This document shows, one piece after another, positions 13,101 through 27,271 of a DNA stretch of 27,280 bases. The translations under genes and the position numbers were made by a program. The notes beneath the pieces are model-generated. The model was not told where the DNA came from. It worked only from the letters and a program-made list of their open reading frames with translations, and made no database searches. Source of the stretch: Lysobacterales bacterium (GTDB taxonomy: Bacteria > Pseudomonadota > Gammaproteobacteria > Xanthomonadales > Marinicellaceae); the NCBI GenBank assembly GCA_027083915.1, contig JALWML010000060.1, forward strand, positions 1 through 27,280, written 5' to 3'. The first letter of the stretch is position 1. Every line of letters begins with the position of its first letter.

Positions 13101-13966
13101 AAACATGCTTGCAAGAATTTGACTGGATTAGCAAGGATGAAGCTGGCATTAGTCCAAAGGTTTCTTTTGATTTTAGCCAAGAAGTGATAGCGCCTTATGT
13201 CAATTTATCGCGACCTAAAGTGGCAATCTTAAGAGAGCAAGGTGTTAATGGCCAAAAAGAAATGGCGATGGCATTTTACAAAGCTGGTTTTGATGCCTAT
13301 GATGTTCATATGCAGGATTTGCTGGACGGGCGATTTAACTTAAATGATTTTCAGGGTATGGCTGCTTGTGGTGGATTTTCCTATGGTGATGTGCTTGGAG
13401 CAGGTAAAGGCTGGGCGCATAGCATCTTATTTAACGAACAAATTAAAGCACAGTTTAGTCAATATTTTGCTAGTGGTGATAAGTTTACCTTGGGCGTCTG
13501 TAATGGCTGTCAGATGTTGTCGTCTTTAAAAGAGATAATTCCTGGTGCTCAATCTTGGCCGCAATTTCTAAAAAACACATCGCAGCAATTTGAGGCTCGT
13601 TTTTCTTCTGTTATAATTGAGAAGAGTAACTCTATCTTTTTTGAAGATATGCATGGTGCACATATTCCAGTTGCTATTGCACATGGAGAGGGTCGCGCGT
13701 GTTTTGAGGATGAATATAACACAAAAAATAGAGCGGTTAGTTATTGTGATAATAATGGTAACAGGACACAAAGCTATCCTTTTAATCCGAATGGTTCTCA
13801 CAATGCTACAGCAGCTGTTAGTAATGAAGCTGGTAATGTGTTGATAATGATGCCACACCCTGAACGGGTATTTAGAGCAGAACAGATGTCATGGTATCCT
13901 AAACAGTGGCAGGGAAATTCACCGTGGATGAGAATGTTTTACAATGCGAGGAGATTTGTTAAGTGA
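10142..13966 (+). CDS. purL: Phosphoribosylformylglycinamidine synthase, large single-chain type
   Basis: 1274 aa; [40 protein letters not shown], glutaminase GVCNGCQ and HPE motifs. Confidence 0.98.
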   Translation: [1274 protein letters not shown]

Positions 13967-14655
13967 GTGATTCAGTAGAAAATAACGAAAAATATTCAAA
14001 AACAGTTATTAAAGAAATGCTAATTAGCGCGATACTTTATTTGCCTATTAGTTTCTTTGTGTGGTTTTATGCCTCAGCATTATTAGTGATACCAGTAAAA
14101 TATCTCTTGCAAGCAGTACTAACTTTGTGGCAACCTGAACTTTTTAATGCTGTCACGCAGCACCAGTATTTATTAAGTATTGAAACGTTAATTTTTCCAT
14201 CAGAGACATTTGCTGGTCAAGGCGATAAGTTGGCAGTTTTGGATGTATCGGTTAATCCTATGTTGTATGGTTATGGGGTTGCTGTTATTTCAGGGTTGGT
14301 TTTGTCGGTTCCTGGACTGAAGTGGACTAAAGTCATCTTTCAAATAGTTTTGGGTTATTTTGTTGTTGTTTTGGTGCAAACTTTTGGATCTTTTTGGGAA
14401 ATGATGAAGCATTTAATGTTAGAAGCTGGACCTGATGTGTCTCATGCCATTCTCGAAACAGGCATATCGCCCAATATTATGGCGTTGATGTACCAATTAT
14501 CTTATTTAATTTTCCCAGCAGTTATTCCTGTTGCTTATTGGATTATAATGAATAATGTCTTTATTGGAGAAATAACTGGCCTGGATAAAAAACAAGCTCG
14601 AAACTTTAATAAGAAAGCAGTGTCTGATAAAAAACAAACTGAAGAAGATAAATGA
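13963..14655 (+). CDS. Exosortase-H-associated-type multi-pass membrane protein (no Cys)
   Basis: 230 aa with about 4-5 hydrophobic segments. Motifs VNPMLYGYG and YQLSYLIFPAVIPV recall the XrtH-associated family (from memory). GTG start overlaps the purL TGA, with SD GAGGAG upstream. Confidence 0.6.
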   Translation: MSDSVENNEKYSKTVIKEMLISAILYLPISFFVWFYASALLVIPVKYLLQAVLTLWQPELFNAVTQHQYLLSIETLIFPSETFAGQGDKLAVLDVSVNPMLYGYGVAVISGLVLSVPGLKWTKVIFQIVLGYFVVVLVQTFGSFWEMMKHLMLEAGPDVSHAILETGISPNIMALMYQLSYLIFPAVIPVAYWIIMNNVFIGEITGLDKKQARNFNKKAVSDKKQTEEDK

Positions 14656-25696: not shown

Positions 25697-25744
25697 AGTA
25701 TGTGGCCCTGTATATATATAATTAACTTTTAGGAGTTCTAAAAA

Positions 25745-27271
25745 ATGAAAAGAAACAATTTAACAACTGCATTGATCGCAGGTATTGCTGGCGTAGCTGG
25801 TATTGCATCTGTATCAACTGCTGTTAACTTAAATTCAGATGGTACAGGACAGGTATTAATCTATCCTTACTATACTGTAAATAATGGTTTAAACACATTA
25901 ATCTCTGTTGTTAACACAACGGATAAGACTAAAGCTATCAAGGTACGTTTCCTTGAAGGTAAAAATAGTCGTGAGTGTTTAGATTTTAACTTATTCTTGT
26001 CTGCTTATGATGTTTGGACGGCAGCCTTGATTCCTGATACTGCATCTGATTTGTTCTCTCCAGGGTACGCAGGTCAAAATACAGTTAAGATAATTACAAA
26101 TGACACTTCTTGTGTGGATCCATCTATAATCAGTACTAGTGGTTATCAGTTCCTTCCTTATGGCTATAATCCTAACGACGATGGTGTAGAGCCTGCTTAT
26201 GATCAGCAAGGTCTTGATTTGCAACGTTGTACCGAAGGTCATTTTGAAATGATTGAGATGGGCGATGTAACTGACCAAGATACGATTGATGGTGTAGATC
26301 ACGGAACAACAGGTGTTCCTGCAGACTGTGGTGAGGCTTATAAAAATACTGACCCAGGTGGAATTTGGACTGGTGTTATCTCTGGTATTGATGCTCCGTC
26401 TGGTGGTATCTTTGGATCAGCTTCAATTATTGATGTTGCTGGTGGTACTGATATAGCTTACAATGCTGATGCAATAGATGCATTTACTACTGTTCCTAGA
26501 ATTACTTTCTCTGGCGACCAAAAACCTGATTTAGCAGATGGTAACGTTTTGGATAGTAATATTTTTTATGGTGGTAATGTTATTACTGATACTTGGAACT
26601 TGAGTTCTGTTCAAGCGGTTAGTGCTGTTTATATGCATGACAGTATCTTTGGTGAATATAGCTTAGAAGATGTTGTTGGTGCTAATACAGAGTGGGTTGT
26701 GACTTTCCCAACCAAAAAACACTATGTGGATTCATTTGTTAGTGGTTTTCCTACAACTCCTTATCAGCCATTCCTAAAGGAATTAAACGAAAATGGTACT
26801 GGCGCTTGTGAAGTTTACACGTTTGAGTATTATGATCGTGAAGAGCAAGTTCCTGATCCAAGAGTGGCAGCGCGCCCACCATCACCACGCCCACCAGGCG
26901 TACATAATGATGATGCTGTGTTGTGTTGGGAAACCAATGTAGTTGAGTTTAATGACTCAGAAGTTACAAGTGGTGATTCATTAATTCTTGGTTCTAAAAA
27001 TACCACGCATTTCATCACAGCTAATAAACCTGCACAAGCAGCAACTCCGACAACTCCAGCAGTTGATCCTAGTTACTTTGATACAGGTTGGGTAGCTATG
27101 CACTTTAATACACAAAGTACAAATGATAACGTTTCTACTAATGTTTATGAAGGTTTACCTGTAACTGGTTTTGCTGTACAACGTTATGTTAATGCAAACC
27201 TATCAGGTGGTGTTTTAGCTAACTATGCAGGCTTGTTCGCACATAGATATTCTAGAAATATCCATAACTAA
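25745..27271 (+). CDS. Secreted cell-surface protein, putative S-layer subunit
   Basis: 508 aa; Sec signal ending VSTA|VNL; strong RBS AGGAG; acidic, Gly/Thr/Asp/Asn-rich, 6 Cys. Motifs GTGQVLIYPYYTV, VRFLEGKNSRECLDFN, WVVTFPTK and GLPVTGFAV recall a proteobacterial cell-surface protein family (from memory). No CTERM anchor. Confidence 0.65.
   Translation: MKRNNLTTALIAGIAGVAGIASVSTAVNLNSDGTGQVLIYPYYTVNNGLNTLISVVNTTDKTKAIKVRFLEGKNSRECLDFNLFLSAYDVWTAALIPDTASDLFSPGYAGQNTVKIITNDTSCVDPSIISTSGYQFLPYGYNPNDDGVEPAYDQQGLDLQRCTEGHFEMIEMGDVTDQDTIDGVDHGTTGVPADCGEAYKNTDPGGIWTGVISGIDAPSGGIFGSASIIDVAGGTDIAYNADAIDAFTTVPRITFSGDQKPDLADGNVLDSNIFYGGNVITDTWNLSSVQAVSAVYMHDSIFGEYSLEDVVGANTEWVVTFPTKKHYVDSFVSGFPTTPYQPFLKELNENGTGACEVYTFEYYDREEQVPDPRVAARPPSPRPPGVHNDDAVLCWETNVVEFNDSEVTSGDSLILGSKNTTHFITANKPAQAATPTTPAVDPSYFDTGWVAMHFNTQSTNDNVSTNVYEGLPVTGFAVQRYVNANLSGGVLANYAGLFAHRYSRNIHN

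Follow-up and report, generated by a model that had tools for sequence, protein, structure and literature searches.

A T2SS operon followed by an npdA-family gene

The window analysed here is a stretch of 27,280 nt that constitutes contig C60 of a 2.97-Mb metagenome-assembled genome (MAG; 87 % complete, ~37 % G+C) of a Lysobacterales bacterium, the DNA of the region being held almost only by hydrothermal-vent metagenomes. On its forward strand, an Xps-like type II secretion system (T2SS) operon is followed by a gene (25745-27271) encoding an exported protein of 508 amino acids (aa). From its sequence, this protein is well supported as a further, new representative of a published family of S-layer proteins, NpdA, and the gene, hereafter npdA, is likely to encode the major S-layer subunit of the bacterium, exported by the adjacent T2SS.

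Downstream of purL (10142-13966), the genes form an unbroken same-strand run as far as the 508-aa open reading frame (ORF). The first gene of the T2SS operon (13963-14655) encodes a polytopic membrane protein of 230 aa devoid of Cys that scores 138 bits (cut-off 35) with the model NF041730, 'exosortase H-associated membrane protein'; it overlaps the stop of purL by 4 nt and the start of gspE by another 4 nt. Eleven T2SS genes, assigned by Pfam and NCBIfam matches, then extend from gspE to gspD (14652-25202). These are gspE, encoding the ATPase (14652-16400; TIGR02533, 641 bits; PF00437); gspF, encoding the inner-membrane platform (16406-17614; PF00482); gspG, encoding the major pseudopilin (17624-18049; PF08334, N_methyl); the minor pseudopilin genes gspH (18065-18529; PF12019, N_methyl), gspI of XpsI-like type (18526-18960; N_methyl, with NF047828 XpsI at 87 bits, below cut-off), gspJ (18957-19670; N_methyl and a weak T2SSJ match) and gspK (19667-20545; PF21687, T2SSK_1st); a gspL-like gene with PilM/PilN-like domains (20580-21719; PF05137, PF11104); gspM of the XpsM type (21691-22326; NF040576 GspM_XpsM, 111 bits, cut-off 60); a gene for an XpsN/GspC-like component (22313-23014), weakly matched by NF041470 XpsN (E 8e-8, far below cut-off) and with PF28060 XpsN on record for its orthologs; and gspD, encoding the secretin (23025-25202; TIGR02517, 459 bits, cut-off 351). 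The core set E, F, G, H, I, J, K, L, M, C/N and D is hence found in one operon. No prepilin peptidase gene was found within the cluster, the rest of the genome not having been searched for one.

The gspD stop is overlapped by 8 nt by a translationally coupled gene (25195-25611) for a small outer-membrane-type lipoprotein of 138 aa with the lipobox LMMTAC. A gap of 133 nt (25612-25744), holding the npdA promoter and leader region, separates this gene from npdA, and the window ends 9 nt past the npdA stop. A sequence-only reading of this stretch had described a complete Xps-type T2SS bracketed by two coupled genes; upon re-checking of all ORFs its coordinates and descriptions proved correct, with 11 core genes matched and overlaps of 4, 4 and 8 nt.

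The NpdA-family protein and its predicted expression

The 508-aa precursor begins with a Sec-type signal peptide of 26 aa and yields a mature protein of 482 aa, 52.1 kDa and pI 4.2 with six Cys residues, of which C123 and C195 were invariant and C355 and C394 nearly invariant in an alignment of 30 homologs, in keeping with its earlier description as a Sec-exported, acidic, disulfide-containing protein. It was matched by none of the Pfam and NCBIfam models. A word-based search retrieved more than 3700 homologs, with no informative name among those listed, and an exhaustive profile search returned 4435 clusters at 50 % identity, many of them of ~950 aa with two copies of the domain; such two-domain forms were the top matches of the profile search. 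NpdA is thus a very large family (>4400 clusters at 50 % identity, many two-domain).

Assignment to this family rests on family searches, synteny and NpdA motifs, and the connection to the characterised NpdA proteins of Paracidovorax citrulli and Delftia was made through the published BLASTP ortholog set and motif inspection rather than through a pairwise E-value. Syntenic relatives of the window protein in Rudaea, Wenzhouxiangella, Chiayiivirga, Dokdonella, Tahibacter and Rhodanobacter are 38-42 % identical to it (E 1e-92 to 1e-104); all six genera are named among the NpdA orthologs of PMC10765051, and the sequences from the first four match entries of its ortholog file. The T2SS-linked protein of Rudaea sp. 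3F27F6, which is 42 % identical to the window protein, has an N-terminus nearly identical to that of the published R. cellulosilytica ortholog (PMC10765051), and the T2SS-linked protein of Wenzhouxiangella likewise starts almost as the published ortholog from this genus does. Moreover, P. citrulli NpdA contains, in order, the motifs that form the invariant columns of our alignment, namely KAVKVRF, LDF..F.SPGDVWTA, REGY.E, DW....PT, DREE, C.E..V..F, GW and GLP..G., and its signal peptide of 25 aa and mass of 52.4 kDa (PMC10765051) are close to those of the window protein. Weak matches in two genomes of a class-wide sample corresponded to other distant members of the family, not to Comamonadaceae NpdA.

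NpdA first came to light in Delftia sp. Cs1-4 as the protein of its S-layer and nanopods. In that strain it is the dominant envelope protein, forms an SDS-resistant oligomer, was localised by immunogold and also forms nanopod sheaths around vesicles, and an npdA mutant lacked the S-layer (PMC3110197). In P. citrulli AAC00-1, its identity as the S-layer protein was established by a deletion mutant, mass spectrometry and cryo-EM (PMC10765051). The same study listed BLASTP orthologs in 62 betaproteobacterial and 49 gammaproteobacterial species, among them Rudaea cellulosilytica, Rudaea sp., Chiayiivirga, Tahibacter, Dokdonella, Rhodanobacter denitrificans, Wenzhouxiangella and Nitrosococcus, and observed by cryo-EM an NpdA-like layer in 15 of 16 further npdA-bearing cultures, including that of R. 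cellulosilytica, a member of the Xanthomonadales (PMC10765051). The window protein shares with the Delftia and P. citrulli proteins the motif series, a Sec signal peptide, a mature mass of ~52 kDa, the lack of a Pfam domain and the position of its gene directly after a gsp (T2SS) cluster. Unlike them, it belongs to a vent bacterium of low GC content that has not been cultured and whose lineage, that of the Marinicella relatives, is absent from the ortholog list; its identity to betaproteobacterial NpdA is presumably low. The sequence-only reading was therefore right to propose an abundant S-layer protein next to a T2SS, relatives of this protein having been experimentally shown to form S-layers (PMC3110197, PMC10765051); the novelty that it had entertained for the system did not hold, as both the NpdA family and its T2SS neighbourhood had been published (PMC3110197, PMC10765051).

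An AlphaFold model of the window NpdA built on the homolog alignment (pLDDT 84, pTM 0.86) is almost entirely beta and apparently consists of two beta-sandwich domains. Searching the PDB with Foldseek gave no significant match, and VIA-align returned generic beta-sandwiches (TM1070, Z 8.7; galectins, Z ~5). The matching AlphaFold DB clusters were all uncharacterised, one of them being named 'cell surface protein' and one coming from Nitrosococcus oceani. No solved NpdA structure was found. An enzyme-like fold, which the sequence-only reading had set against its own proposal, was not among the matches to the model by Foldseek, VIA-align or AlphaFold DB.

Codon usage was expressed as a codon adaptation index (CAI) with weights taken from the genes for EF-Tu, EF-G and seven ribosomal proteins of the same genome. 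The CAI of npdA, 0.717, lies at the 98.4th percentile of 1879 ORFs and inside the range of the reference genes (0.67-0.76), bearing out the earlier remark that its codons are biased as in genes for abundant proteins. The T2SS genes range from 0.54 to 0.64 (4th to 69th percentile). Other NpdA-like genes of this genome, which consist of two tandem copies of a module of ~480 aa (one on C581, the other split between C516 and C433, two contigs that overlap by ~127 nt and join into one two-module gene), have ordinary values of 0.59-0.63. High-expression codon usage is hence limited, among the NpdA-like genes of the genome, to the T2SS-linked copy. No RNA-seq runs were listed for this DNA, its holders being hydrothermal-vent metagenome DNA.

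As read from its sequence, the gap at 25612-25744 is a conserved promoter with a structured leader, as is often the case for S-layer genes. It contains, in this order, -35/-10-like boxes (TTGTTA and TAATAT, 17 nt apart), a hairpin and, 9 nt before the npdA ATG, the ribosome-binding site (RBS) AGGAG. Seven relatives with no more than 50-80 % protein identity retain boxes of the form CTTG..(17 nt)..GTAAcATT, the hairpin flanks and the RBS; complementary GCTATA and TATAGC flanks surround a variable hairpin, and the RBS TTAGGAGTT is invariant across the relatives compared. The leader of the window folds at -22.2 kcal/mol (z -2.8). This hairpin is based on a single-sequence fold and visible inverted repeats, and RNAalifold applied to a gapped alignment of the intergenic regions did not recover it or any consensus structure. 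Of the own promoter and strong RBS claimed for this gene by the sequence-only reading, the RBS stood and the promoter was backed by the conserved boxes, although a generic promoter and terminator scan of the 133-nt gap found nothing above threshold or background. Its own strong promoter, structured leader and strong RBS would allow the gene to yield far more NpdA than there is secretion machinery.

Conservation of the operon, exosortase H and the lipoprotein

Gene order was examined in the best 80 related loci (38-80 % identity), each as far as its contig reaches, and the order gspF to gspD, lipoprotein gene, npdA was kept in all of them where the contig allowed. These loci include Marinicella, Rudaea, Tahibacter, Chiayiivirga, Dokdonella, Rhodanobacteraceae, Ahniellaceae and Wenzhouxiangella. 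Four contigs inspected individually, down to 42 % identity (among them Marinicella rhabdoformis and a Lysobacterales MAG), all showed gspE-gspD, a lipoprotein of ~138 aa and npdA. The linkage of npdA to the T2SS is far beyond chance, and the gene-neighbourhood analysis that had been suggested for the 508-aa family thus bears out its connection to gspD and the lipoprotein gene. In line with these observations, npdA was reported to follow 12 clustered gsp genes in beta- as well as gammaproteobacteria (PMC10765051, 2023). Within this order, the T2SS operon consistently includes the XrtH-associated gene and the lipoprotein gene.

In four relatives, npdA is followed by genes for a protein of ~430 aa with no known function, a parvulin-type prolyl isomerase and a Wzm/Wzt ABC exporter and, further downstream, by two GT2 glycosyltransferase genes, a methyltransferase gene and a gene for an unknown protein of 600 aa. 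These conserved genes may supply a glycan that anchors or modifies the layer. A tblastn search found the genes for the ~430-aa protein, the prolyl isomerase and Wzm nowhere in the present assembly.

At the head of the operon, the arrangement purL, XrtH-associated gene, gspE was found in 30 of 30 loci of the order. Exosortase H (XrtH) itself is encoded elsewhere in the genome, on another contig (C149:1890-2357; TIGR04177, 180 bits) unlinked to the T2SS, where the gene adjoins a response regulator gene and a sensor kinase fragment of a two-component system. Outside the order, in other Gammaproteobacteria (loci L152-L159), the XrtH-associated gene directly follows xrtH in most carriers, whereas within the order this pair is split and the partner gene is placed between purL and gspE. 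Nine loci fetched from outside the order showed no gspE within 1.5 kb of the pair.

The three families also occur together. Of 151 genomes of the order, NpdA was found in 120, XrtH in 121 and the XrtH-associated protein in 121, and the three patterns nearly coincide family by family: all three occur in the same single genome out of 18 in one family, and each occurs in 6 of 17 genomes in another. In a class-wide sample of 400 genomes, XrtH was present in 6 of 10 NpdA-positive genomes vs 7 of ~389 others. Such counts overstate independence, the genomes being related. One genome (G309) yielded a very strong NpdA match and neither XrtH nor its partner.

Rhombosortase is a membrane sorting enzyme tied to T2SS cargo, GlyGly-CTERM proteins being secreted by the T2SS in Vibrio, and may be analogous to exosortase H, whose partner gene is here fused to the T2SS operon. 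In contrast to rhombosortase cargo, NpdA has no C-terminal sorting signal, and the connection between XrtH and the T2SS is one of gene position and co-occurrence. The window NpdA carries no IPTL-CTERM tag, the substrate tag of exosortase H, and proteins with this tag were found neither in this 87 %-complete MAG nor in a Marinicella-type genome that is complete. Four other relatives have 2-4 such proteins each, all unrelated to NpdA. NpdA was therefore rejected as an XrtH substrate. A precedent for XrtH in S-layer biology is the S-layer protein mela_00855 of Methylomirabilis lanthanidiphila, which carries IPTL-CTERM (PMC8671808); it is a protein unrelated to the window NpdA, from a different phylum, and differs from it in having the tag.

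The lipoprotein, present in every related locus, has a mature form of 117 aa. Its family retains the lipobox Cys plus a pair of Cys residues, and the motif W..L/I....AY.YLSPG.R is widely common without being invariant. An AlphaFold2 model (pLDDT 91.6) shows helices packed on a curved four-stranded sheet and matches NTF2-like proteins at Z 10-12, including YchJ, ketosteroid-isomerase-like proteins and the N-domain of PBP2a, in agreement with the NTF2-like fold that had been guessed for it. Known pilotin folds (PulS/OutS, AspS) were not among its top structure matches. A complex prediction for the mature lipoprotein and residues 640-725 of GspD scored 0.12 against a mark of 0.32, which speaks neither for nor against binding. 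The codon usage of the gene is ordinary (64th percentile), and this, together with its coupling to gspD, argues that the amount of lipoprotein follows that of the secretin rather than that of the coat protein.

Proposed export and assembly of NpdA

In the pathway that we consider likely, the NpdA precursor would cross the inner membrane by Sec and fold in the periplasm, probably with two conserved disulfides; the folded protein would then be pushed through the GspD secretin by the adjacent Xps-like T2SS, a second and probably dedicated system, to assemble on the cell surface into a paracrystalline coat. Export through the adjacent T2SS is the most likely route in our analysis. A second GspD above the TIGR02517 cut-off was present in five of five genomes checked. 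In the present genome it lies at C130:4622-7022, adjoins a GspE-like ATPase and scores higher with the canonical GspD model than the npdA-linked secretin does; in the four relatives, it fits this model at least as well. P. citrulli similarly has two gsp clusters (PMC10765051). A second GspD per genome, combined with high-expression codons in the linked npdA copy only, favours a dedicated exporter.

Two S-layer proteins were cited as parallels by the authors of the NpdA study, Aeromonas VapA and Pseudoalteromonas Slr4 (PMC10765051). In Aeromonas salmonicida, the vapA gene adjoins, as npdA does, a T2SS cluster (spsD) considered dedicated to its export (PMC10765051). T2SS dependence was experimentally demonstrated for VapA, whereas that of NpdA is deduced, and our searches, which gave no cross-match, point to no sequence relationship between VapA and the window protein. 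Slr4 of Pseudoalteromonas tunicata is likewise a marine gammaproteobacterial S-layer protein encoded beside a T2SS cluster, but belongs to a different family, and its gene is located upstream of the T2SS rather than downstream (PMC7821379).

Several points weigh against an NpdA-based S-layer exported in this manner. The source is an uncultured hydrothermal-vent MAG whose evidence consists of sequence; the authors of the NpdA study state that the T2SS dependence of NpdA export was not tested (PMC10765051); many relatives have up to ~10 NpdA paralogs plus two-domain fusions, which is unusual for a classical single-subunit S-layer; and in cultured P. valerianellae, which carries npdA, a bead-like layer was not clearly seen (PMC10765051), so that the presence of npdA does not guarantee a lattice. 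The NpdA protein of the window might be abundant on or outside the cell in another capacity, for instance as a matrix protein, an adhesin or a vesicle coat, rather than as the subunit of a closed crystalline S-layer. This would account for the large paralog families, tandem arrays and two-domain fusions of this genome and its relatives, would suit the likeness of the N-terminal domain to galectin-like, carbohydrate-binding beta-sandwiches (Z ~5) and to TM1070 (Z 8.7), and has a counterpart in the sheathing of vesicles by NpdA in Delftia. We regard it as unlikely in view of the layers seen in nearly all npdA-bearing cultures, that of Rudaea included, and of the ribosomal-protein-like codons confined to the T2SS-linked copy, as expected of the main coat subunit. 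It is similarly improbable, in our view, that the neighbouring T2SS is a general system whose position reflects inherited history, NpdA using another route or sharing the T2SS with many substrates. Most of the synteny sampled here comes from a single order and is thus partly explained by vertical inheritance; moreover, some npdA carriers (Thiothrix, Nitrosococcus) are devoid of several linked gsp genes (PMC10765051). On the other side stand the occurrence of the same linkage in Betaproteobacteria (PMC10765051), the additional and more canonical GspD of each genome checked, and the need of Aeromonas VapA for linked T2SS-type genes (PMC10765051).

A different proposal concerns the gene upstream of gspE, which the sequence-only reading had called a pseudo-sortase and which would, in this event, encode a catalytically dead exosortase that adapts cargo to the T2SS. 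The product is indeed a polytopic membrane protein without Cys and is named for its association with exosortase H, its gene directly follows xrtH outside the order, and hhalign aligns one short membrane segment containing A.P. However, hhalign, run with 17 XrtH-associated proteins vs 11 XrtH proteins, gave a probability of 1.5 %, the product has no exosortase Pfam match and is recognised instead by NF041730, and the label is thus not supported at the sequence level; a real XrtH with its Cys-containing core is encoded elsewhere in the genome, NpdA is devoid of IPTL-CTERM, and the tagged proteins of the relatives are unrelated to NpdA. We consider a dead exosortase at this position very improbable.

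Returning to the T2SS-exported NpdA coat that we prefer, a wider role of the locus may be envisaged, which we find possible though doubtful: the locus might be one conserved coat-biogenesis unit in which a second, dedicated T2SS is physically and functionally coupled to the exosortase H system. This coupling would, tentatively, run via the XrtH-associated protein encoded by the first gene, and the T2SS would also be coupled to the NTF2-like lipoprotein encoded after the secretin; the same machine could conceivably both export the NpdA lattice and place XrtH-processed IPTL-CTERM proteins in or under it; and, with the same reserve, the downstream prolyl isomerase might help folding and the Wzm/Wzt exporter might deliver an anchoring glycan. 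The proposal draws on the invariant purL arrangement, the matching phyletic patterns, the class-wide enrichment, the downstream genes and mela_00855. It is weakened by G309, which lacks XrtH, by the kinship of the genomes and by the absence of gspE near the pair in the loci from outside the order. Lattice formation in this organism, as well as any role of the XrtH-associated protein and the lipoprotein, is something we infer. Should exosortase H cooperate with the T2SS, an exosortase class about which little is understood would for the first time become accessible by function, as would the way in which proteins are attached to an outer membrane that bears an S-layer.

An NpdA S-layer gene in a T2SS neighbourhood is already known, and recognising it here removes the false novelty of an apparently unknown surface-display system while extending NpdA to Marinicella-like vent bacteria. 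Not described in PMC3110197 or PMC10765051 are the constant arrangement of purL, XrtH-associated gene and gspE with the partner gene moved to the head of the operon, the conserved lipoprotein, the near-identical distribution of NpdA, XrtH and the partner gene, the second canonical T2SS of each genome checked, the two-domain paralogs and the conserved promoter and leader. Three candidates for the NpdA export and assembly pathway thereby emerge: the second T2SS linked to npdA, the membrane protein associated with XrtH and the lipoprotein of NTF2-like fold. As a separate observation on the paralogs, three Marinicella-type genomes (G109:C34, G125:C1, G140:C1) carry 3-4 NpdA paralogs in tandem, 18-26 kb from xrtH on the same contig.

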